NCBI GenBank assembly: GCA_963823665.1
Contig: CAWGMQ010000003.1
Location: 800,001 to 864,000, forward strand
Length of the DNA stretch: 64,000 nt
Source: an uncultured Planctomycetota bacterium
Lineage (GTDB): Bacteria > Planctomycetota > Planctomycetia > Isosphaerales > Isosphaeraceae
Direction: 5' to 3'
Made by a program: the position numbers and the translations under genes. Below, one piece after another: positions 45,266 to 59,014 of this stretch (position 1 is the first letter of the stretch; each line of letters opens with the position of its first letter). Below the pieces are notes generated by a model. It did no database searches. It had not been told where the DNA came from and saw only the letters and a list, made by a program, of their open reading frames with translations.

Positions 45266-46156
45266 TCATGGTGTTGCTCCCTTGGCCCTACGTGACGCCA
45301 TCTTGACCGCGTTCGTCAAGTGAATATCGTTGACGCGATCTCCAGTGAAAGCTCCGTCCTTCCAGAACCAAGGGTAATCGTTTATGTCTCGTTCCGGCTC
45401 TTTGCCGCGGTCTTTGGTCCACTTAATGTTGGGGTTCTTGCGGAGGATGCCTGCTGTCATGAAGGGGCGGATGTTTATGCGCACGCCGTCGTTGAGGTTT
45501 GGGCTCCCGCCGATCGGCTGCTCATGCAGGGGCTTCCAGCGGACGAAGATGTCGTGGGGCGGCTCGCCGGCCAAGATGAGCTTGAGCTTTTGTTGCAATT
45601 CCTGGGCGGCGTTCAGACGGAGATCGGCCCCGACCTTGTCGGACTTGCTCTGGGCAGTGATCCAGTCACCGAGATACGAGTAGATGAGGTTTCCCAGCGC
45701 TTTGTGGTCGAGCTTGTGGTAGTTCACCAGGGCCGAGAAACGATCCTTGCGACCGTCCCAGATGTGCCAGATGAACGGGCGGTTGTGGAAGCGCTTGCAG
45801 TGCTGGTCGAAGAACTGGTTTCGGAGCCAGTCGTCGAGCGTGGTCCCCGCGGTGCATCCGGCGCCAGTGAGCAGATTGTGCAGTACTGAATCGGTCGAGG
45901 CGGGGGAGACGTCGAATCGCTCTCGCGGTGCAACACCGAACTTACGAAGGATGAACCCGCACTTGAAACACGTGAGGTAGGCAGCCTCCTGAGCGAAGTT
46001 CGGATGGATGCGGATTCGATGCAAGCGCACGGGGCCGCGAGCAACGTCCAAGACAGCCATGTTCTTGACGGACGAATCCTGGACGACCTGAACGGGACAG
46101 CCCGTCAGGGATTCGACTTCATCGACGGTTCGCTTGACGGCGGTCTGTGGGTCCAT
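45266..46156 (-). pseudogene. pglX: Chimeric ORF: ~90 aa unrelated N-terminus fused to the C-terminal part of BREX methyltransferase PglX
   Basis: WLRNQFFDQHCKRFHNRPFIWHIWDG, FSALVNYHKL, YLGDW, DIFVRWKPL.EQPIG and NDGVRINIRPF; no SAM-binding or NPPY motifs present. Confidence 0.72.
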
Positions 46157-46383: not shown

Positions 46384-48035
46384 GAGGCTGTCATCTTTTG
46401 GCCGCGTTGCGGTAACTCGGCCGTTGGGCCTAGTCGGCTGTGATTCACCGCTTGGTCGCTCGGTTAGTGCCGCCGATTCACGCCAGTTCTCCAATAGCCC
46501 AGCCGTTGACGCAAACGCGCTTTCCTATTTTGTCCCTTTTTTGCAAAGTACCGCTCATTCCGCCAGTTTGCCCATCGCTGGGCGCAGTCTCCCTGCGACA
46601 ACCAGGTTGTGAGCAATTGCAAACAACAATGCGACGGCGCGGCAACGCGGTTGGCCACGCACGGGCATAAACCAGAATCCTCGATTGCGAGCCTGGGCGT
46701 TGACCCACTCGGCTGTTTGGCCTCGCAGCCGGTAGATCAGCTTCGCGGCCTCGGTCCCCATTCGGATCCGCCAAGCGGCAACCGCTTCGCTGTCGCCCTT
46801 CTTTGCGGTGTAGGGATCTTCTCCATTTGCCTGTTTCTTTTTCTCGTCTCTGATCGGCCCGTATACGATGCAGCCGCGTTGGGCCGCCTGATCGATCGAG
46901 TCCTTGGTCGTGAAGCCACCGTCAACCAATGCCTCATCCGGAATTCGTTCGTAACGCTCCTCCAACTGGTCGAGCATGGGCGGAAGTTCTTCGCCATCGT
47001 TCCCTGCGTTGGTCACCTCCACACCCACAATCACACCGCTTTCGGTGTCTGTTGTGAATTGAACGTTATATCCCGGCCGGAATCCTCCGTCTGGAAACTT
47101 CATGATCCTCGCGTCGGGGTCGGTGGTCGAAGCACGCGCTTCCCGCCCCTTGCGGCCGTAGGACTCGTCACGTTCGCGTTGCAGCTCCTCGCACTGCCGC
47201 ATCGCTTCTTCGATCCGTTGCTGTCGCTTGTTGGCGGCACGCTCCCGCGCCGCTCGCTGCCGTCGAGTCAGCTCTGCTGTGTCCTCCTCGGCCAGTTTCT
47301 TCAGCGCCTCAACCTGCTCCTTCGCCGCTTTCAGGCACTCCTCCAGGCTACCGCGACGACGAAACGAGCTCTTGCCCGCGCTGGCACGCACTCTCATTCC
47401 GTCCTGAGCGACCCGGTCCATTTTCACCAACCCGGCATGGAGCAGGGTGCCCACGATCTGCGTGAGCAGTTCGTTCAACTTCTCGCCCCCACAAGCGAGG
47501 AAGTGGGACAACATGCTGTGGTTGACGGTTACGCCGCCGCACAGCCACTGGTACGGCAGACTCCCTTGGTTCTTTTCGCACAGCCGTTCGATTTCACGGG
47601 CGCTGCCGACTCCCTTCAATGTGGCGAAAACCCGCAATCCGACCAGCAAGCGCGGGTCGGTGGCATCTCGGCCGACATGTCGCTCGACGGCCTTGATCTC
47701 GCCGAGCCAGGCTTTCAGATCGAGCTTGCAGACCGCCGCCCAGACGACCCGGGCCGGATGGTCGGCCTCGAGCAATTCATCGAGCGATGCCCAGCGCATC
47801 TCGATCTGGTCGCGTACGGGACACCGCAGCCGCGGCTTGCCAGTTGGCATCGACTGGGCAGCCTGGGCGGGAGAGGGCTGATCGGGCAAGTCTTCTGGGC
47901 TAAAGAGAGGAAGTGTCATGACGCTCGTCCTGCAACACCGGGGCTGCGTGGGGCTCATGCGGCGGACTACATGCATGGTATTAGAACGTGAACACTATAC
48001 AAAATCAACCCCAACGCCGAAAAAATCACAGCCTC
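46384..48035 (-). mobile_element. IS1182-family insertion sequence with imperfect terminal inverted repeats and GGA target duplication
   Basis: Left end GAGGCTGTCATCTTTT; reverse complement of right end GAGGCTGTGATTTTTT; GGA at 46381-46383 and 48036-48038. Confidence 0.85.
46555..47919 (-). CDS. IS1182-family DDE transposase
   Basis: DHPARVVW, SAREIERLC, YQWLCGG, AQDGMRVRASA, STTDPDARIM, GYNVQ, LVDGGF and YRLR..TAEWVN. Confidence 0.88.
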   Translation of the reverse strand: MTLPLFSPEDLPDQPSPAQAAQSMPTGKPRLRCPVRDQIEMRWASLDELLEADHPARVVWAAVCKLDLKAWLGEIKAVERHVGRDATDPRLLVGLRVFATLKGVGSAREIERLCEKNQGSLPYQWLCGGVTVNHSMLSHFLACGGEKLNELLTQIVGTLLHAGLVKMDRVAQDGMRVRASAGKSSFRRRGSLEECLKAAKEQVEALKKLAEEDTAELTRRQRAARERAANKRQQRIEEAMRQCEELQRERDESYGRKGREARASTTDPDARIMKFPDGGFRPGYNVQFTTDTESGVIVGVEVTNAGNDGEELPPMLDQLEERYERIPDEALVDGGFTTKDSIDQAAQRGCIVYGPIRDEKKKQANGEDPYTAKKGDSEAVAAWRIRMGTEAAKLIYRLRGQTAEWVNAQARNRGFWFMPVRGQPRCRAVALLFAIAHNLVVAGRLRPAMGKLAE

Positions 48036-48596: not shown

Positions 48597-50774
48597 ATGG
48601 GTGTGCTGCAAGGTGCCGCGGTTGTCGGGATGCGTGATCAGCGGTCTTCGACCGGCAATGGGTCGCGGTTCAACGCGGTCAAGCATGGGCTGACGGCGAA
48701 GACGCCGGTTTTGCCGGGGGAGGATCCGGCGGAGCTTCAGGCGAAGATTGATGCGTACAAAGCCAAGTATCAGACGCGAGACCAGGTCGAGCACGACCTG
48801 GCCGAGATGGCGGCGATGGCTTGCTGGCAGGCCAAGCGGGCCAACCGATTGGAGACCGTCCGGCTGACGTGCGGTATTGTGGCTCGGCCGGATGCCGATG
48901 CGCTTTGCGCGGGGAATGAAGTCGACGGCCTCGGTCGTCGCTTGTTGTTTGACCGCCGCGGGCCCTGGCAGCTTTATCCGTCGCCAGAGTATATGCATAA
49001 GCAGCCGCGGACCTCGGATTCGGGCGAACCTATTGACCCCGATCAGCCTGCGGTGATCAAACGCGGGCTTGAAGCGACCCCCGAGGGCTGCGGCTGGCTG
49101 CTGGACCGGTGGTTCGAGCTGAGGAAGCCGCTCGAGAACGAGAGCGAGGATGGCTCGGGCTGGATTTCGTGTCAGAAATTCACGGCCATCCGTCTGCTGG
49201 GTAAGCAGCCGCTCGACGCCATCCACGATCCCGAAGTGGCCATGGTGTTTCTCGCAAGCCATGCCATCAGTCCGAATTTTGCAACGGCTTTTCACGAGCT
49301 TCGGTGCGAGATCCGCGACGATCAGGTTGAGATGTATGAGGGCGAGCTTTGTCGAGAGGAGTGGCAGGCAATCACTCCGGCGGATACCGCGGCCGGACGG
49401 GCGGCGTTGTTCGAAATCGTTGACCGGGAGATTGAGCGGCTGAGGATACTCGAAGCCAAGCGGGCGGAAGTCGCCGACTTCCTCGATCAGGTTCAGACGG
49501 ATGTCCCCAGCGAAGCTCAGTGTAAGGCCGTCGAGCAGATTCGGCGTCATCTTCAGAGTGCCAACCGACTGATGCTGCGGAACATTGACGCGATTGAGAG
49601 GGCGCGACGGAAGGAGGCGGAAGGGTGGTACAAGGTCCGGCGGGAACGAGAACGGCTGAAAGCAGAAGCACGACGCGGGCATATGTCCGATCTGCGATTT
49701 GTGATCGATGAGCGTGGGAGCGTTCGCGATGCCCAAGGCTATGACGGCGACCTCGAGGCTGGGCTGGCTCGCTGGAAGGCGACGCACGGACCGCAGCCTT
49801 GTGAGAAGCCGTATTACAGTGCGCCTGGTGCTGGCGGCGAGAGCTACACATGTGGCACGCCGAATGACGTGAGCGCGAAGCCCGCACACTCGCAGATCCA
49901 GGGCCAAACGGAAGCGATCACCGATCGGGCGTGCGAGACGGCCGCGGGGAATAGTGATGCTCGGGAAGCGCCCGTGGCGATGCGGGCGGATGGGGTGACG
50001 GATGATCGTGCGATGGATCAGGGCGCTGCGGCCGGGGCGGAAATGCGGGATGGGGCCGCGGATTTGGGTCAAGCTGGGCTGAGCGATTTCGTTTCCGTAA
50101 CCCTTACGGGACAAGGGCCCGCGACGAATATACAAAACGAAATCGACGGGGGGAGCAGCGAGGGCGGAGGACGGAGAGCGGAGGAGGGAGGAGGGGCGGC
50201 GGAGGACGGAGGGCGGAGAGCGGAGGAGGGAGGAGGGGCGGCGGACTGGGGCGAGCCTTCGCGTGCAGGAGACCCGCGCCGAACTGGTGGCCACACAGAG
50301 GCGGAAATCGAGGACGCGGCCACCGGTTCCGGACAAGTTGGGCTGAGCGATTTCGTTTCCTTAACCCTTACGGAGAAAGTGCCCGCGACGAATATACAAA
50401 ACGAAATGGTGGAGGACGGACCAAGCGAGGCTGCGGGCGACGCGCCGATCGAAGCTGTGGCGGCCGGGCAAGACGAAGGGGGCGAGACCGGCTGCCAGGA
50501 GGACGGTGGCGGTGATGATTTGCCGGCGACTTTGGGCGAAGAGGGTTGCGTGGTGGCGCCTCGGGTGCCGGAGCCGCTTTCCAAGAGGGAGAGACGGCGG
50601 CGGGGACGTGAAAGGGCGCGGCGACGTGAAATGGCGAGGAAGGAGTTTGAGCGCCGGCGCGGGGTGATCGCGAGTCAACCCGATGTTTCGGTGGGCGAGA
50701 TACTCGACAGCGTTGAGTCGATCTTGCCGAACGCGGTCGCGTTTCTCCGGAAATACGGGCCGCGGTCGCCGTGA
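48597..50774 (+). CDS. Hypothetical protein of the 'NA.KHGLTA' family with a low-complexity, repeat-containing C-terminus
   Basis: SRFNAVKHGLTAKTPVLPGED...W...RA.R.ET N-terminus, helical middle region, acidic Gly-rich tail. Confidence 0.7.
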   Translation: MGVLQGAAVVGMRDQRSSTGNGSRFNAVKHGLTAKTPVLPGEDPAELQAKIDAYKAKYQTRDQVEHDLAEMAAMACWQAKRANRLETVRLTCGIVARPDADALCAGNEVDGLGRRLLFDRRGPWQLYPSPEYMHKQPRTSDSGEPIDPDQPAVIKRGLEATPEGCGWLLDRWFELRKPLENESEDGSGWISCQKFTAIRLLGKQPLDAIHDPEVAMVFLASHAISPNFATAFHELRCEIRDDQVEMYEGELCREEWQAITPADTAAGRAALFEIVDREIERLRILEAKRAEVADFLDQVQTDVPSEAQCKAVEQIRRHLQSANRLMLRNIDAIERARRKEAEGWYKVRRERERLKAEARRGHMSDLRFVIDERGSVRDAQGYDGDLEAGLARWKATHGPQPCEKPYYSAPGAGGESYTCGTPNDVSAKPAHSQIQGQTEAITDRACETAAGNSDAREAPVAMRADGVTDDRAMDQGAAAGAEMRDGAADLGQAGLSDFVSVTLTGQGPATNIQNEIDGGSSEGGGRRAEEGGGAAEDGGRRAEEGGGAADWGEPSRAGDPRRTGGHTEAEIEDAATGSGQVGLSDFVSLTLTEKVPATNIQNEMVEDGPSEAAGDAPIEAVAAGQDEGGETGCQEDGGGDDLPATLGEEGCVVAPRVPEPLSKRERRRRGRERARRREMARKEFERRRGVIASQPDVSVGEILDSVESILPNAVAFLRKYGPRSP
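50070..50407 (+). repeat. 74-bp direct repeat (50070-50143, 50334-50407) enclosing a GGA-rich tandem duplication
   Basis: Both copies encode Q(A/V)GLSDFVS(V/L)TLT..(G/V)PATNIQNE with ~6 mismatches; GGRRAEEGGGAA occurs twice at ~50165-50245. Confidence 0.85.
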
Positions 50775-51170: not shown

Positions 51171-51329
51171 AAGTCATTCTCGATCCGTGATATCTAGGAA
51201 ATTTCTCGCCTCGCATGTAGCAGCGGGTGTATCCTGTTGTCGTTGCCGATTTCAAGAGGCCTCGTCAGCAAGGTGCCGCACCTGGTCCGTGGCCTCTTCG
51301 TCCAACGACCCGACAACCGGAGACACGAC

Positions 51330-51911
51330 ATGATGAAGAAACTCGGATTCGCAGCCGCTCTCGCCGTCGCGGCGACGCTCGTCATCGGAGCGCCGGCGAT
51401 GGCCCAGACCGCCAAGAAGAAGCAGCAGCGCATCAGCCCGCACGAGACGATCACGGAGACGATTGACGGTAACGAGGTGAAGCTCGTCTACGGGCGCCCA
51501 TACACCAAGAAACCTGGGACCGACGAGGTCCGCAAAATTTGGGGCGGCCTGGTCCCGTACGGCAAGGTCTGGCGGACTGGCGCTGACGAAGCGACCCTGC
51601 TCACGACCAAGGAGCCGATCGAGATCGGCGGCTACTCACTCGCCGCCGGCACGTATTCACTGTTCACCGTCCCTAACGAGGACGGCACCGCCAAGCTCAT
51701 CATCAACAAGAAGACCGGGCAGTGGGGCGTCCCCTATAAAGAAGAGTCCGAGAAGGCCAACGAGCTGGCGCGGGTGGACCTCAAGAAGTCGGACCTCGAT
51801 AAGGACGTTGACCAGTTCACGATGGCGATCGAGAAGGAGGACGGCGGGGGTAAGCTCAAAATGTGTTGGGAGAAAACGGAGTACTCGATCAAGTTCACCG
51901 TGAAGAAATGA
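51330..51911 (+). CDS. DUF2911 family secreted protein
   Basis: Signal peptide (..PAMAQ); SP, YGRP, GLVPYGKVWRTGADEAT, GTYSLFTVP and QWG; GGAGA RBS. Confidence 0.88.
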   Translation: MMKKLGFAAALAVAATLVIGAPAMAQTAKKKQQRISPHETITETIDGNEVKLVYGRPYTKKPGTDEVRKIWGGLVPYGKVWRTGADEATLLTTKEPIEIGGYSLAAGTYSLFTVPNEDGTAKLIINKKTGQWGVPYKEESEKANELARVDLKKSDLDKDVDQFTMAIEKEDGGGKLKMCWEKTEYSIKFTVKK

Positions 51912-51992
51912 GGCCGAAAGGCCGCGTGCTCACACTGATTTCCATCGCGGCCCATGCGGTCGCGATGGATTCTTCAACTCCGGGGCTCGCCC

Positions 51993-54491
51993 ATGCTTGC
52001 ACCACGACTCTCCGGCGGCTCGAAACGGCTCGTTCCGCTCGTCCTGGCCGGAGCCTTGCTGGCCGGCCCGATTTCCAGCGGCCGCGGCGCGGAGCCGATG
52101 ACCGCCCAGGAAACGCTACGCGAGCTGCGCGGGTTTCGCGAGCTGGGGAGCGTCTTGTACGTGGCCGCACACCCCGACGATGAGAACACCCAGCTCATCG
52201 CTTACCTGGCGCACGGGCGCTCCTACCGCACAGCCTACCTCTCGCTCACGCGGGGCGACGGCGGCCAGAACGTGATCGGCCCCGAGTTTTTCGAGGAGCT
52301 GGGAGTGATCCGCACCCAGGAACTGCTCGCCGCGCACCGCCTGGACGGCGGCCGGCAGTTCTTTACCCGCGCTGTCGACTTCGGCTTCTCGAAGAATTCC
52401 GCCGAGACGCTTCGAATCTGGGACCGGAAGGCGGTGGTCTCCGACATCGTGCGGGTGATCCGGACTTTTCGGCCCGACCTGATCATCACGCGCTTCTCAC
52501 CCCAGGGGGGCGGGCATGGACACCACACAGCGTCCGCGATCCTGGCGGTCGAGGCATTCAAGCTCGCGGGCGACCCCACGGCGTTCCCCGATCAGATCGG
52601 CGAGCTCGCCGCGTGGCAGCCCAAGCGAATTCTTCAGGACGGCGGCGGACCCGGCGGCCGGGGCGGCGGCGGGTCGGGATCGCTCCGCGTCGAGATCGGC
52701 GGGGATGACCCGGTTTCCGGCGAGCCGCTCGGGACGATTGCCGGGCGCAGCCGGGCCATGCACAAGAGCCAGGGCTTCGGCGACTTCGCCGGCCGCGGCG
52801 GGGGTGGCGGTCCCCGCACCGGCTCGTTCACGCTCCTGGCCGGCGAGCCCGCGACCAACGGCATCATGGACGGCGTCGACACGACCTGGGCCCGTGTGCC
52901 AGGCGGGGCGCCTGTCGCAAAGCTGGCCGACGAGGCGGTCGCGCAGTTCGACTTGAAAGACCCTGCCGCTAGCGTGCCGCGTCTGGTGGCGATCCGCGCG
53001 CGGCTGGCTTCGCTCCCCGTCGACCCCGTCGTGGCCGAGAAGCGGCGCCAGCTCGACCGGGCGATCCAGGGCTGCCTCGGACTCGTGGTCGAAACGACCG
53101 TCCCCCGAGCCGAAGCCGTGCCGGGCGAGAAGCTGCACCTTCAGCATCGGGCGACGGTCGCGGCGAGTGTCCCCGTCCGCTGGTTGTCGGTGTCTTATCC
53201 GCTCACGGGCCGATCAATCGACGTGCCGATCGAGCTGACAGCCGGCCGCCCCGCCACCCGCGACGTGGACCAGACGCTGCCGGCCGACTCGCCGCTTGGC
53301 CAGCCGTACTGGCTGCGCGCGGAGCACACTGTCGGCCTCTTCAAGGTCGACCCCGCCACGTTGATCGGACGCCCCGAGAACCCGCCGGCATTCCCGATCG
53401 AACACCGATTCCAGGTCGGCGATCAGACTCTTGAGATCGCCGACGTCGCTGCTGGAGCCGCAGAGCAGGGACAGCCGGCCCGGCGGCTCGAAGTCATCGC
53501 GCCCGTAGCGCTGCGGTTCGTCTCGGAGGTGCGACTCTTCGCCCCGGGGTCGGAGCGTCGCGTCGACGTCGAGGTGACGGCCGCGCGCGACGGCGCGGCG
53601 GGCCGGCTCGACCTCCAGGCGCCCAGTGGTTGGACGGTCACGCCCGCGTCACAGCCGTTCCGGCTCGCGTCGGCCGGCGACCACGCGCTCTTGGCGTTCA
53701 CCGTCAAAGCCCCGTCCGAAACGGGTACGGCCACACTCGCGGCCGAGGCTCGCGTGGGCGATCGGACCTGGAACACCGGCAAGGTCGTGATCCGGCACCA
53801 GCACATCCCCGTCCAGTTACTCCAGCCGGCCGCGCGACTGAAGGCCGTCGCCCTCGACCTCTCGATCAAGGGCCGCCGCGTCGGGTATGTCTCCGGCGCC
53901 GGCGACCGGGTGGCCGAGAGCCTCGCGGAAATGGGCTACCAGGTCACGCCGCTGGCCGGAGCGGATCTCACCCCCGATAAGCTCGGCAATCTCGACGCCG
54001 TCGTGATCGGCGTCCGCGCCTACAACGTGCGCACGGACCTCGACGCCGCCCTGCCGGCGCTGTTCGCCTACGTCGAGGGGGGCGGGACGGTGGTCGCCCA
54101 GTACAACCGGCCGAACGAGCTCAAGACGAACCGGCTCGCCCCCTACGACCTGCGGCTATCTGGCGCCCGCGTTACCGACGAAACGGCGCCGGTTGCCTTT
54201 CTCGCACCCGACCACCCCGTGCTCACGACGCCCAACAAGGTCAGCCAGACCGACATGGAAGGCTGGGTGCAGGAGCGTGGTATTTACTTCCCGGCGCAAT
54301 GGGACTCGCACTTCACTCCGATCCTCGCATCGGGCGACCCGGGCGAGACGCCGCTCAAGGGAGGCCTGCTCGTGGCGAAGCATGGCCGGGGCCACTTCGT
54401 CTATACCGGGCTCGTCTTCTTCCGGCAATTGCCCGCCGGAGTCCCCGGGGCCTACCGGCTCTTCGCCAATCTGGTCTCGCTCGGCAAATGA
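51993..54491 (+). CDS. Exported PIG-L/LmbE-family deacetylase with Ig-like (NEW3-type) and C-terminal class I glutamine-amidotransferase-like domains
   Basis: Hydrophobic N-terminus; AAHPDDE, TRGDGGQN, RAVDFGFSK, HGHH, SRAMHKSQGFG, WVQERG.YF and RQLPAGVPGAYRLFANL. Confidence 0.88.
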   Translation: MLAPRLSGGSKRLVPLVLAGALLAGPISSGRGAEPMTAQETLRELRGFRELGSVLYVAAHPDDENTQLIAYLAHGRSYRTAYLSLTRGDGGQNVIGPEFFEELGVIRTQELLAAHRLDGGRQFFTRAVDFGFSKNSAETLRIWDRKAVVSDIVRVIRTFRPDLIITRFSPQGGGHGHHTASAILAVEAFKLAGDPTAFPDQIGELAAWQPKRILQDGGGPGGRGGGGSGSLRVEIGGDDPVSGEPLGTIAGRSRAMHKSQGFGDFAGRGGGGGPRTGSFTLLAGEPATNGIMDGVDTTWARVPGGAPVAKLADEAVAQFDLKDPAASVPRLVAIRARLASLPVDPVVAEKRRQLDRAIQGCLGLVVETTVPRAEAVPGEKLHLQHRATVAASVPVRWLSVSYPLTGRSIDVPIELTAGRPATRDVDQTLPADSPLGQPYWLRAEHTVGLFKVDPATLIGRPENPPAFPIEHRFQVGDQTLEIADVAAGAAEQGQPARRLEVIAPVALRFVSEVRLFAPGSERRVDVEVTAARDGAAGRLDLQAPSGWTVTPASQPFRLASAGDHALLAFTVKAPSETGTATLAAEARVGDRTWNTGKVVIRHQHIPVQLLQPAARLKAVALDLSIKGRRVGYVSGAGDRVAESLAEMGYQVTPLAGADLTPDKLGNLDAVVIGVRAYNVRTDLDAALPALFAYVEGGGTVVAQYNRPNELKTNRLAPYDLRLSGARVTDETAPVAFLAPDHPVLTTPNKVSQTDMEGWVQERGIYFPAQWDSHFTPILASGDPGETPLKGGLLVAKHGRGHFVYTGLVFFRQLPAGVPGAYRLFANLVSLGK

Positions 54492-54670
54492 CCATCCGGG
54501 ACGACGATCGAGCCGGTCCGCCGCACCCGAGCGGCTGCGCGGAGGAACCGCCGGACGGGGCGACTGGCCTGCCCTGGCCGAGGACGTGGCCGGGCGTTTA
54601 CGCGCTGGTGCTCATCTGCTTCGTCGCATGGGTGGTCTTGCTCGTCGTGCTAGAGCGGAGCTATCCATGA
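54488..54670 (+). CDS. Small single-TM protein upstream of the symporter
   Basis: ATGA overlaps at both ends; TW..VY.LVL..FVAWVVLLVVL transmembrane segment. Confidence 0.75.
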   Translation: MTIRDDDRAGPPHPSGCAEEPPDGATGLPWPRTWPGVYALVLICFVAWVVLLVVLERSYP

Positions 54671-56382
54671 CTCTGCTCGACTTCGTGGTGCTCGCCGGTA
54701 GCATGGTCGGGATCGCGGCCCTCGGCGTCTGGCAGACACGCGGGCGGCAGGAGCTGAGCTATTACCTGAAGGGCGACCGGCGCACCGGCTGGGCCGCCAT
54801 CGGCATCTCGGTCATGGCGACGCAGGCAAGCGCAGTGACGTTCCTCTCGATGCCCGGCCAGGGGTACCAGGACGGCCTGGGATTCGTTCAAAACTACTTT
54901 GGCGCCCCGCTCGCCCTGATCATCATCGCGGCGGTGTTCTTACCGATGTATCGCCGGCTGAAGGTGTACACGGCGTACGAGTACCTCGGGCGCCGGTTCG
55001 ACGCCAAGACCCGGCTTCTGGGCGCAGGCCTTTTTCTCCTCCAGCGCGGCTTGCAAGCGGGGATCACGGTGTACGCCCCCGCGATCATCCTCTCGACGGT
55101 GCTGCACTGGCGCACCGACGCCACGATCCTGCTCTCCGGGCTGGTCGTGATCGCCTACACGGCGGCGGGCGGCAGCCAGGCAGTGAACGTGACGCAGAAG
55201 TACCAGCTCGGCGTGATTTTCTGCGGGATGCTGGCAGCCTTCATCGTCCTGCTGCGCCGGTTGCCACCCGGCGTCGGGTTCGACGACGCCTTGGCCTTGG
55301 CCGGCGGCTTCGGTAAGTTAAACGGGGTCGATTTCTCGGTCGACGCGAGCCGGCGTTACACGTTCTGGTCGGGGCTGCTGGGAGGTCTTTTTCTGGCGCT
55401 GTCGTACTTCGGCACCGATCAGTCTCAGGTCCAGCGCTATCTGTCCGGAACATCGCTCCGCGAGAGCCGGCTCGGCCTGATGTTCAACGCCGTGCTAAAG
55501 ATTCCCATGCAGTTTTTTATCCTGCTCCTGGGGACGATGGTGTTCGTCTTCTACCAGTTCGAGCCGTCGCCGATTTACTTCAACCGCGTGGCCTGGGAGC
55601 GCGGGCTAAAGCGCGATCCGGACGGCCGGCTCCGGTCGCTCGAGCAGCACTTTGGAGAGCTTCACACCGAGAAGCGGCGCGCCGTCCTGGACTGGCTCCA
55701 TGCCCGCGAGAGCGGCGACCGCTCGGCCGAGGCTGCGGCGCGAATTCGGGCCCTGTCCGCGCACGATCGAAGTCAGGCCGCGCGGGCCGAGGCCAGGGCG
55801 GCCCTGGAATCGTTCACCTCGAGCGGCAAAGCTCCGGATACCGATTACGTGTTCATCAGCTTCATCCTCGGCCATCTCCCACATGGGATGATCGGTCTCT
55901 TGATCGCCGCGTTCTTCGGCGCCACGCTCTCGTCGAAGGCCGCCGAGCTGAACGCGCTGGCGTCGACAACGACGGTCGATTTCTACCGGCACATCGTCGT
56001 GCGCCAGGCGAGCGACGCACATTACGTAGGCGCCACGCGCTGGTTCACCGTGATGTGGGGGGCGATCGCGGTCGGCTTCGCGCTCTTCGCCAGCCTGGCG
56101 GAGAACCTGATCCAGGCGGTGAACATCGTGGCCTCGATCTTCTACGGCGTGGTCCTCGGCCTGTTCATCGTCGCGTTTTTCCTGCGGCAGGTGCACGGGA
56201 CCGCCGTCTTCTGGGCGGCGATCGCGGCGCAGCTCCTGGTGTTCGTGCTCTTCGCCACCCTGGAGATCAGCTACCTGTGGTATAACCTGATCGGCTGTGC
56301 GGCCTGCATGGGGTTCAGCCTCGCGCTGCAGGCGGCGATCGGCCCCGGCCCGTCCGCCGCGGAGGCGCCCGAGAACCCATGA
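54667..56382 (+). CDS. Sodium:solute symporter (SSS family)
   Basis: SVMATQASAVTFL, YTAYEYL..RF, YFGTDQSQVQRYL and LNALASTT.VD; many transmembrane segments. Confidence 0.92.
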   Translation: MTLLDFVVLAGSMVGIAALGVWQTRGRQELSYYLKGDRRTGWAAIGISVMATQASAVTFLSMPGQGYQDGLGFVQNYFGAPLALIIIAAVFLPMYRRLKVYTAYEYLGRRFDAKTRLLGAGLFLLQRGLQAGITVYAPAIILSTVLHWRTDATILLSGLVVIAYTAAGGSQAVNVTQKYQLGVIFCGMLAAFIVLLRRLPPGVGFDDALALAGGFGKLNGVDFSVDASRRYTFWSGLLGGLFLALSYFGTDQSQVQRYLSGTSLRESRLGLMFNAVLKIPMQFFILLLGTMVFVFYQFEPSPIYFNRVAWERGLKRDPDGRLRSLEQHFGELHTEKRRAVLDWLHARESGDRSAEAAARIRALSAHDRSQAARAEARAALESFTSSGKAPDTDYVFISFILGHLPHGMIGLLIAAFFGATLSSKAAELNALASTTTVDFYRHIVVRQASDAHYVGATRWFTVMWGAIAVGFALFASLAENLIQAVNIVASIFYGVVLGLFIVAFFLRQVHGTAVFWAAIAAQLLVFVLFATLEISYLWYNLIGCAACMGFSLALQAAIGPGPSAAEAPENP

Positions 56383-57167
56383 ACGCACAAGTGACGACCA
56401 CTCCCGTCATCTGCTTCGGCCAGCAGCCATGCGGCTTCTTCCCGCGGCGCTATCTCTACGCCAAGATCGCCACGGCACGGCGGCTTCAGGCGGAGCTCGG
56501 CGGCGAGGTCGTCTTCTTCTGCCATGACAGCGACCACGACTTCCGCGAGACCCGCACCACTTTGCGCCACCGCAAGACGGGCGAGCCGCTCCAGCTCAAT
56601 TTCGCCTTCGACAACCAGGTGCAGCGGAAGTTCTCGCCGCTGTACTTGAAGCGGGTGCGCGCCGACTGGCACGCCCGCACCGCTCTGCAGATTCGACCCT
56701 ACGTCGACCCCCGGTGCGAAGACGCATTCCGCGCCGTCGAATCTCGATTTGTCGCCGATTTCTGCATCGAGATGTACCGAAGGATGGGCCTGCTCGAGGG
56801 CATTCGCGTCGCGCGCTCGTGCGAAGCGTCCTTTCGCAGCGCGGCGTGCGAGGTGGAAGACTTCTACGTCGACGTGCCGTACGAAGGCGAGGTCGTGCGG
56901 GCCCGGCCCGTCGATGGCCGGCTCAGGCTTTACAAGGGGGGTGATCAGTATGTGGACCTTCCGGACGTGAAGTTTACACGTGAGCAGATCAGCCCGACGC
57001 GCGACACCCGGCTGCGCTGGATGCAGTCGGTGATCCGGTGCACCCACTACGTAGCAGGAGCCAGCGAGCAGAGTTATCTTCGCAAGGAGGACGCGCCGGA
57101 GATCACTTACGTCGTTCGCGACACCATCGATCGGCCCGAGGAAGCCTATGTCGAAGTCTCATCCTGA
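56379..57167 (+). CDS. bshC: Short BshC-like protein (putative cysteine-adding enzyme), 262 aa
   Basis: VICFGQQ...K...A..L...VVFF..DSDHDFRE and HYVAGASEQSY align by eye with BshC V.TGQQ...K...VFW...EDHDF.E and YIGGPGE..Y; adjacent to bshB1 and bshA. Confidence 0.65.
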   Translation: MNAQVTTTPVICFGQQPCGFFPRRYLYAKIATARRLQAELGGEVVFFCHDSDHDFRETRTTLRHRKTGEPLQLNFAFDNQVQRKFSPLYLKRVRADWHARTALQIRPYVDPRCEDAFRAVESRFVADFCIEMYRRMGLLEGIRVARSCEASFRSAACEVEDFYVDVPYEGEVVRARPVDGRLRLYKGGDQYVDLPDVKFTREQISPTRDTRLRWMQSVIRCTHYVAGASEQSYLRKEDAPEITYVVRDTIDRPEEAYVEVSS

Positions 57168-57876
57168 GCTGGGACCCCTCGTGGCCTTTGGCGCCCATCC
57201 CGACGACGTCGAGCTCGGCTGCGGCGCGGTGGTGGCTCTGGAGGCCCGCGCCGGGCGGCCCGCCCATGTGATTGTCTGCTCGCGTGGCGAGTCAGCCACC
57301 CACGGCACGCCCGATGAGCGCATCCGCGAGTGCCAGACCGCGGCGAAGCTGCTGGGGGCATCGCTCGAGCTGATCGAGCTCGACGGCGACGCCCACCTCG
57401 AACTCAAGGCCGCCCACGCGATCCGGCTCGCCGGGGTGATCCGGCGGTTGCGGCCGGCGGTGGTCCTGGCGCCCTCTCTCGTCGAGAACCAGCATCCGGA
57501 CCACTCCCGGCTGGGGCGCCTGGTGCGCGACGCCGCCCGCATCGCCCGCTACGGCGGAGTTGCCGAACTGCGCGACCTGGCCCCGCACTCGATCGAGCTG
57601 CTCTTCTATTATGCACTGGCGCCGGGCGCCGAGCCTCTCGATGTGACCCCGGTCTTGGTCGACGTCTCGGCGCCCGAGGTCCTGGCTGCGTGGAGCGCCG
57701 CGATGAAGGCGCACACGACGCAGGTGAAGGCCCGACCCTACGTCGAAATGCAACAGACGCGAGCCCGCGTGAATGGGCTGCGGGCCGGCACCGGCCACGC
57801 GATCGCCCTCTACCCCAACGACCCTCCCGTCGTCGACTCGCTGGCGCGGCTGGGCCGCAGCACGAACCGGTTCTGA
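57148..57876 (+). CDS. bshB1: N-acetyl-alpha-D-glucosaminyl L-malate deacetylase (PIG-L family)
   Basis: AFGAHPDDVELGCG, SRGE.ATHGT...R..E and HPDH; directly upstream of bshA. Confidence 0.82.
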   Translation: MSKSHPELGPLVAFGAHPDDVELGCGAVVALEARAGRPAHVIVCSRGESATHGTPDERIRECQTAAKLLGASLELIELDGDAHLELKAAHAIRLAGVIRRLRPAVVLAPSLVENQHPDHSRLGRLVRDAARIARYGGVAELRDLAPHSIELLFYYALAPGAEPLDVTPVLVDVSAPEVLAAWSAAMKAHTTQVKARPYVEMQQTRARVNGLRAGTGHAIALYPNDPPVVDSLARLGRSTNRF

Positions 57877-57877
57877 C

Positions 57878-59014
57878 ATGCCCGCTTCTCGCCCTCTGCG
57901 CATCGGCATCACGTGTTACCCGTCGGTGGGCGGAAGCGGCATCCTCGCGACCTCGATGGGCATCGACCTTGCGCGGCGCGGCCACGATGTGCATTTCATC
58001 TGCTACGAGCGCCCGTTTCGCCTCCCGAGCGATCTACCCCGCGTCCACTTCCATCCGGTCGCCATCAACGACTACGGCCTGTTCAAGTACCCGGACTACA
58101 CGCTGCCGCTCTCGGTGAAGATGGCCGAGGTCAGTCGCGAATTCCGGCTTGACGTGCTCCACGTCCATTACGCCGTGCCGCACGCCACGGCCGCGTTCCT
58201 CGCGCGGTCAATGCTGCCGCCCAGGCTGCGCCCGAAGGTCGTCACGACGCTCCACGGCACCGACACCACGTTACTCGGCCGCGATCCGGGCTACGCGCCG
58301 GCCTTGCGATACGCACTGACGCGTTCCGACGCCGTGACCGCCGTGTCCGAGTTCCTTCACGCCGAAACTCGCCGTGTTCTCGGCGTCAAGCGGCCGATCG
58401 AGGTTGTGCACAACTTCTTCGATCCGCGCCCACCGCGCAGGACGCGCGAGGCGGTGCGGCATGAGCTCGGCGTGACCGATGAGCTGGTCATCCTGCACAG
58501 CTCGAACCTGCGCCCGGTGAAGCGGATCGACCTGTTGCTCGAAGCGGCCGCGCGGGTGCGCCCGCAAGAATCGTTCCGCCTGGTGATCCTTGCGGGGGAC
58601 GACTTCGCGCCATTCGCCGGCGAGATCCGCCGTCTTGGCCTCGAACGCCGGGTGAGCGTGCTCGAGCGCGTGCTCGACATCGAGGACTACCTCCAGGCCG
58701 CCGACGTCGGGCTGTTCACATCGGATTCCGAGAGCTTCTGCCTGAGCATCCTCGAAGCGATGTGGTTTGGCTGTCCGAGCGTGGCGACGCGAGTGGGAGG
58801 CATCCCCGAGGTGGTGGAAGACGGCGTCTCGGGCCTCCTCGTCACCGCTGGTGACGCGGACGAGCTCGCCCGCGCTCTGGAAAGCCTATTGTCGAACCCG
58901 CCGCGCCGCCTCGCCATGGGCGAAGAAGCCCGCCGCCGAGCGCACGAGCGATTCTCCGCCGACGTCATCGTGCCGCTCTACGAGGCGCTCTACCGACGGG
59001 TCTGCCACATCTGA
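57878..59014 (+). CDS. bshA: N-acetyl-alpha-D-glucosaminyl L-malate synthase (GT4)
   Basis: IGITCYPSVGGSG, F.YP.Y.L.L, LHVHYAVPHA, TTLHGTD, SNLRPVKR and ESF.LSILEAM. Confidence 0.92.
   Translation: MPASRPLRIGITCYPSVGGSGILATSMGIDLARRGHDVHFICYERPFRLPSDLPRVHFHPVAINDYGLFKYPDYTLPLSVKMAEVSREFRLDVLHVHYAVPHATAAFLARSMLPPRLRPKVVTTLHGTDTTLLGRDPGYAPALRYALTRSDAVTAVSEFLHAETRRVLGVKRPIEVVHNFFDPRPPRRTREAVRHELGVTDELVILHSSNLRPVKRIDLLLEAAARVRPQESFRLVILAGDDFAPFAGEIRRLGLERRVSVLERVLDIEDYLQAADVGLFTSDSESFCLSILEAMWFGCPSVATRVGGIPEVVEDGVSGLLVTAGDADELARALESLLSNPPRRLAMGEEARRRAHERFSADVIVPLYEALYRRVCHI

Follow-up and report, generated by a model that had tools for sequence, protein, structure and literature searches.

A half-size relative of BshC is encoded beside bshA and bshB1 in Planctomycetota and Verrucomicrobiota

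The window analysed here is a stretch of 64,000 nucleotides from an uncultured bacterium of the Isosphaeraceae (Planctomycetota; GenBank assembly GCA_963823665.1, contig CAWGMQ010000003.1, positions 800,001 to 864,000). Its plus strand carries an operon in which genes for a DUF2911 protein, a large PIG-L hydrolase, a small peptide, a Na+-symporter, a short BshC-like protein, BshB1 and BshA follow one another. The DUF2911 gene (51237..51911, PF11138) probably starts at the ATG at 51330, and by eye its product looks exported. The 845-residue PIG-L hydrolase (51954..54491) matches PF02585 above the cut-off and has a NEW3-like domain (PF10633, below the cut-off); its N-terminus resembles a signal peptide when inspected by eye. 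Next comes a 60-residue peptide with a single hydrophobic stretch and no Pfam match (54488..54670), which shares an ATGA overlap with each neighbour, and then a 571-residue sodium:solute symporter of the SSF type (54667..56382; PF00474 and TIGR00813, above cut-off). The short gene occupies 56379..57167, and we assigned its product from the reading frame, a structural model, and fold and profile comparisons. It is followed by a 242-residue BshB1-like PIG-L deacetylase (57148..57876), which matches PF02585 and has TIGR04001 as its best match at 123 bits without reaching the cut-off of 182.5, and by the GlcNAc-malate synthase BshA (57878..59014; TIGR03999, 404 bits against a cut-off of 273.7), whose ATG lies one base past the bshB1 stop codon.

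The original prediction described the short gene as a 262-residue ORF free of internal frameshifts and tightly coupled on both sides, and both statements agree with the sequence. The frame runs unbroken from its ATG through 262 codons, its start shares four bases (ATGA, 56379-56382) with the TGA of the symporter gene, and the bshB1 start at 57148 overlaps its last 20 bases. The gene has a GC3 of 0.82 and is under purifying selection, with dN/dS values of 0.12-0.27 against all seven close orthologues tested. A scan of the window for promoters and terminators found nothing beyond what shuffled sequences gave (no promoters; 6 terminators versus 4.4 expected). Upstream of the operon lie an intact-looking DDE transposase gene (46555-47976, minus strand; PF01609, DUF772), an adjoining 296-residue ORF (45266-46156, minus strand) whose second half we take to resemble the final part of a methyltransferase of the restriction-modification or BREX type, and a 725-residue ORF (48597-50774, plus strand) that matches nothing in Pfam and has a short repeat near residues 540-570.

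The motifs named in the original prediction are all present in the short protein, as G14-Q15-Q16, K29, D52-H53-D54-F55-x-E57 and Y224-V-A-G227-A-S229-E230-x-x-Y233, and the chain stops 29 residues past Y233. Two of the named residues are nevertheless not conserved in the family: in a 66-row alignment, position 55 is P in 48 sequences and F in six, and position 229 is G in 43 and S in 19, so that F55 and S229 are minority residues. The conserved family forms are GQQP, K29, DHDxxE and GxxExxY.

Sequence searches alone gave little indication of function. The short protein had no match in Pfam or NCBIfam at E ≤ 1, and among its relatives the BshC models were detected only below their cut-offs (PF10079 matched 2 of 66, at best with E 0.053; TIGR03998 matched 1 of 11, E 0.14). 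A phmmer search of solved structures returned cytochrome P450 reductase as its sole match (E 0.04), and the family profile found nothing in the same structures under E 0.3. The AlphaFold2 model of the protein has a mean pLDDT of 94.9. Foldseek placed Bacillus subtilis BshC (4WBD) at the top of its matches with an E of 1.1e-10, followed by class I LysRS at 3.3e-4. VIA-align against 48,161 chains likewise ranked 4WBD first (Z 20.0, rmsd 3.0, 242 residues aligned, with model residues 4-262 on chain residues 80-518), ahead of LysRS (Z 14.4), other class I synthetases (at most 9.1) and MshC (7.6). In the ESM Atlas, 13 of the 30 matches listed were PF10079 clusters, the best scoring 0.91 behind two unnamed verrucomicrobial clusters. 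For profile-profile comparison, we aligned 20 full-length BshC proteins encoded in Planctomycetota genomes; this alignment itself finds 4WBD at E 1e-123. The alignment, A3, was built from 25 loci, of which two had no ORF and three more were excluded. With hhalign, residues 8-235 of the short protein paired with residues 84-360 of the long form at a probability of 94.4 (E 8.8e-8), and at 93.0 when 192 short-family sequences were used. Together, these comparisons answer the structural check against BshC proposed with the original prediction, and point to a Rossmann core with the connecting-peptide subdomains CP1 and CP2. The suggestion that the protein is a minimal Rossmann core holds as far as its likeness to BshC is concerned, but it is not a bare core: the 242 superposed residues include shortened connecting-peptide subdomains. 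A homodimer prediction scored 0.00, a "no answer" that weighs neither way.

The conserved core residues of BshC are largely retained. Of the 41 positions conserved at 90% or more in the 20 full-length proteins, 28 have an aligned column in the short family and 15 are identical, 13 of these at a posterior of at least 0.56. The identical positions include, in BshC numbering, G90, Q91, Q92, K105, D134, D136, E139, R336, G352, E355 and Y358, whereas the G98-P99-L100 loop, W129, Q340 and P345 differ as aligned. In the loop after GQQ, BshC G98-P99-L100 pairs with P22-R23-R24 of the short protein at low posterior. By our own reading rather than the aligner's, R247 matches BshC R379. Relative to BshC, the N-terminus is shorter by ~80 residues and the connecting peptide by about 36, one helix of the latter being predicted to be gone; nothing from the coiled coil onward is kept, the QER motif included, and BshC P498, Q503, E504, R505, G517 and H535 have no counterpart. 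The short protein reaches neither curated cut-off for BshC (PF10079, TIGR03998) and has neither the C-terminal coiled coil (PF24850) nor QER. Because the structural match ends at BshC residue 518, the model suggests that the short tail may lie where the segment after the coiled coil lies in BshC. A tail motif picked out by eye, I250-D/E-R252, was considered as a stand-in for QER and rejected, R252 being lost in divergent members.

The short protein belongs to a large family of uniform length. Among 7,121 candidate proteins of 144-459 residues, 6,550 matched it at E ≤ 0.001, and all but four of the best 120 of these were 256-262 residues long. Of 79 copies with a stop codon in view among the best 80 of at least 565 genome loci, 77 encoded 253-262 residues; the two longer ones (327 and 344 residues) are probably frameshifts. 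In metagenomes, 79 copies measured from GQQ to their stop codon gave a median of 249 residues (range 169-266). Homologues are thus typically about 258 residues long and not about 530, which supports the proposed half-size BshC-like family and removes the objection that the gene is a truncated remnant. When 8,000 longer proteins were scored, five matched and none of these bore a BshC annotation, which is weak evidence; three of the five carry a symporter domain and one glycosyltransferase domains, and these are fusions or read-throughs with neighbouring genes.

By phylum, the best 80 of the at least 565 genome loci comprise 59 from Verrucomicrobiota, 16 from Planctomycetota and 5 others, and the nearest relatives of the window's gene are from Isosphaeraceae. 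A few deep members fall to ~30% identity at lowest with length unchanged. In 192 sequences, 61 positions are conserved at 97% or more, and the invariant residues specific to the family include P87, K91, C129, Y133, S147, R153, W214 and H223. A quick tree grouped members by phylum with 4 changes each, which does not in itself prove transfer. None of 65 pattern matches on viral contigs was confirmed as a relative, and 72,556 plasmids contained no relative of the gene. Riboflavin genes and a gene for a 256-residue BshB2/MshB/Mca-like hydrolase adjoin one deep branch (L114-L116, ~40% identity; L116:6266-7833), and the 14 kb examined contain neither bshA nor a symporter gene. The frameshifted metagenome proteins P0122, P0187 and P0221, together with P0118, were removed between alignments A1 and A2. 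Genome G334 (L016), flagged as unpublished, is a row of the alignments and is among the sets of 50 and 40 carriers used below; no conclusion hangs on it.

The operon is conserved around the short gene. At the best 80 of the at least 565 genome loci, the symporter gene adjoins it in all 80, bshB1 is present at 76 and bshA at 74, all six bshA misses being contig ends; the large PIG-L gene is found at 65, the DUF2911 gene at 60 and a tblastn homologue of the 60-residue peptide at 19. At 80 metagenome loci, many on short contigs, the corresponding counts were 62 for bshA, 60 for the symporter, 38 for PIG-L and 32 for bshB1. In several metagenome loci (L119, L121 and L145), the short gene comes first, then bshB1 and bshA, and the symporter module follows them. 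In a further group, including L128, L133, L141, L147 and L079, the symporter gene is followed by the short gene and then by bshA, and no bshB1 intervenes; here the deacetylase must be encoded elsewhere or replaced. Beyond the operon genes, the most widespread cluster covered 8 of the 160 genome and metagenome loci, and the 22 largest clusters brought to light no additional conserved redox gene such as a DCC oxidoreductase. That cluster is a DinB_2 gene located after bshA (for example L135:8947-9483); its product, which we take to be thiol-transferase-like, begins with what resembles a signal peptide.

The short form replaces full-length bshC, and the two are mutually exclusive across genomes. 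The window's own genome (91.9% complete) carries the short gene once, and neither PF10079 nor PF24850 exceeds its cut-off there, the best PF24850 match reaching 11.3 bits against 27. PF10079 was likewise found in none of 50 carrier genomes drawn from the best 80 of the at least 565 loci. These counts and those that follow come from metagenome-assembled genomes and kin and are read as patterns, not statistics. Among 201 evenly sampled Verrucomicrobiota genomes (one of them the sample's centre, G339, itself a carrier), bshA occurs in 11, ten with the short form and one with the long form, none with both and none with neither; all ten short-form genomes thus have bshA, and the short form co-occurs with bshA and bshB. 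Under the same reading, in 201 Planctomycetota genomes the long form is present in 102 and the short form only in G000, and in the window's order the short form is found in 14 of 121 genomes, all 14 with bshA (G210 by tblastn). PMC6282198 lists Verrucomicrobia and Planctomycetes as phyla in which no small thiol has been documented or predicted. The large PIG-L gene also tracks full-length bshC, 16 of its 17 other Planctomycetota carriers being among the 102, which ties the cassette to the same glucosamine-malate backbone. Full-length bshC, common as it is in the phylum, was found in none of 10 genomes of the window's own class. Two Isosphaerales genomes, G217 and G250 (99% and 96% complete; L111:8094-11473 and L112:8087-11313), have bshA and bshB1 and neither form of BshC; in both, a gene for a PaaK-like AMP-forming ligase adjoins bshA and is possibly a third way to acylate glucosamine-malate.

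Carriers of the short form differ from most long-form carriers in their redox proteins. In sets of 40 genomes each, which differ in lineage and contain kin that are not independent, BrxA/B was found in no short-form and 30 long-form carriers and BrxC in none and 18 (with G000 in place of G334); 34 of the 40 long-form carriers had at least one bacilliredoxin. YpdA was detected at E ≤ 1e-50 in 2 short-form and 7 long-form carriers, and over the cut-off in 0 and 4; one of the two weak short-form matches is in G334. The window's own genome has no match to BrxA/B, BrxC or YpdA. The single long-form verrucomicrobial genome has BrxA/B, and none of four short-form genomes tested from the same sample does. 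Bacilliredoxins and YpdA, usual but not universal companions of bacillithiol, are thus not a feature of the carriers, and models of the BstA type and for glutathione synthetase gave only matches below the cut-off, in five carriers. Thermus thermophilus, described in PMC6282198 as a bacillithiol maker, served as a control and matched neither the BrxA/B nor the BrxC model; bacilliredoxins are therefore not required for bacillithiol. Their absence from the carriers is compatible with bacillithiol, yet lends some support to a different acyl group.

We conclude that the short protein is an intact half-size relative of BshC that probably completes bacillithiol synthesis by attaching cysteine to glucosamine-malate; we put the probability of this reading at about 0.6. 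It likely works like BshC, yet fails membership in that family on score, length and coiled coil. BshA would form GlcNAc-malate, BshB1 would strip the acetyl group, and the short protein would form the amide between cysteine and the freed amine. The cysteine may arrive already activated, as Cys-tRNA or as Cys-AMP from another enzyme, rather than being activated by the protein itself. A pre-activated donor is likelier because the short family lacks a HIGH or KMSKS signature: neither is in the family consensus, and at the helix starts, where they would be expected, the sequence reads P-R/K-R-F/Y. By analogy with synthetase-derived transferases, we would guess at a dependence on tRNA. A pre-activated cysteine donor is assumed for BshC as well in PMC5790435. 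In such a scheme, the coiled coil would be dispensable for catalysis, and the exported hydrolase and symporter encoded upstream would salvage the sugar-malate core.

The alternative that best survives is a different cargo, in which another aminoacyl or acyl group is placed on glucosamine-malate to give a bacillithiol analogue, perhaps not a redox-cycling thiol. Specificity cannot be read from the sequence, because the cysteine-binding residues of BshC itself are not known, and several findings speak against cysteine: the protein shares 15-19% identity with BshC, has a remodelled GQQ loop and no QER, and belongs to a family with invariant residues of its own; the BshB1 neighbour falls below its equivalog cut-off, and the deep branch has no bshA in view; and BrxA/B, BrxC and YpdA are scarce in carriers, bacilliredoxins being absent from every one tested. 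On the other side, the genome sets being compared differ by lineage, the cassette is patchy within the order and may spread independently of accessory genes, Thermus, which has no bacilliredoxins in our controls, makes bacillithiol, most core residues are retained, and a DinB_2 gene follows bshA at some loci. Cysteine, and hence bacillithiol, is the more likely product, and we regard a different cargo as possible on this evidence, if doubtful. A specific form of this alternative, in which tRNA-dependent transfer of some other aminoacyl or acyl group gives a new glucosamine-malate amide as the product of the half-size family, would explain why carriers in Verrucomicrobiota and Planctomycetia have dropped bacilliredoxins while keeping the exported hydrolase and symporter, and is somewhat more speculative.

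It is improbable that the short protein is one half of a split BshC that needs a separately encoded partner bearing the coiled coil and QER. The invariant QER segment is indeed missing, and PMC4360819 and PMC5790435 describe the coiled coil as needed for dimerisation. No such partner came to light, however: PF24850 stays below its cut-off in the window's genome, the 160 loci hold no further conserved gene (the largest other cluster spans 8 loci), and the structural match reaches BshC residue 518, where the short tail may replace the missing segment. A place in a salvage arm, where it would hydrolyse or transacylate imported amides of glucosamine-malate rather than serve as a biosynthetic ligase, is very unlikely. 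The invariable coupling to the symporter gene and the deep branch beside a BshB2/MshB/Mca-like hydrolase only would suit it, but carriers have bshA and no other BshC, which would leave the pathway with no last step; several loci place the short gene ahead of bshB1 and bshA and the symporter module after them; and the predicted fold is that of a ligase family. That the gene is a truncated, decaying remnant of bshC, as half the length of BshC and the lack of Pfam and NCBIfam matches might suggest, is refuted by the narrow length distribution (77 of the 79 complete copies) and the dN/dS values; the 61 conserved positions and the search of longer proteins, in which four of the five matches carry a neighbouring gene's Pfam domain, also speak against it.

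A compact variant of BshC that forms a large unannotated family appears to be new. Among the papers listed by full-text searches of openly available literature, none describes a short BshC or a reconstituted BshC reaction. Where PMC5790435, PMC4360819 and PMC6178380 discuss the enzyme, its reaction is given as unreconstituted and the activated cysteine donor as unknown. The filters of a 2025 survey (PMC12719100) selected proteins of similar length with >80% coverage of and >25% identity to BshC, which the half-size family cannot pass. That a 30-kDa form occurs in nature with neither the N-terminal extension nor the coiled coil reveals which half evolution kept, and a smaller second enzyme with a brief list of shared residues offers test material for the BshC reaction. 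The short form also fills a gap in phyla that PMC6282198 lists with no known or predicted small thiol. If the product is not bacillithiol, it would be a new class of metabolite in common soil and freshwater bacteria.

Among known systems, the closest to the short form is BshC (4WBD; PF10079 plus PF24850; TIGR03998). The two share a predicted fold over 242 residues (Z 20.0), the residues GQQ, Lys, DHDxxE, Arg and GxxE..Y, and a position next to bshA and bshB1 in the pathway, which they take up in different genomes. They differ in size (~540 residues versus ~258), in the N-terminal ~80 residues, coiled coil and QER that only BshC has, in the loop after GQQ, and in the bacilliredoxins that accompany most of the full-length BshC carriers sampled. 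The catalytic domain of class I LysRS (1IRX) is the second-best fold match, with 211 residues aligned to its residues 17-301, and TyrRS, GluRS, CysRS and ArgRS follow at Z 8-9; identity to LysRS is nevertheless 12%, and the short protein has no anticodon-binding domain and is encoded in a thiol-synthesis operon. MshC (3C8Z) performs the analogous step in attaching cysteine to a glucosamine glycoside and has a Rossmann-type core, which aligns over 170 residues. This enzyme is paralogous to CysRS and has both a zinc site and ATP signatures, neither of which is seen in the short protein. It is a far weaker structural match than BshC, and the neighbours of the short gene are bshA and bshB1 rather than msh genes.
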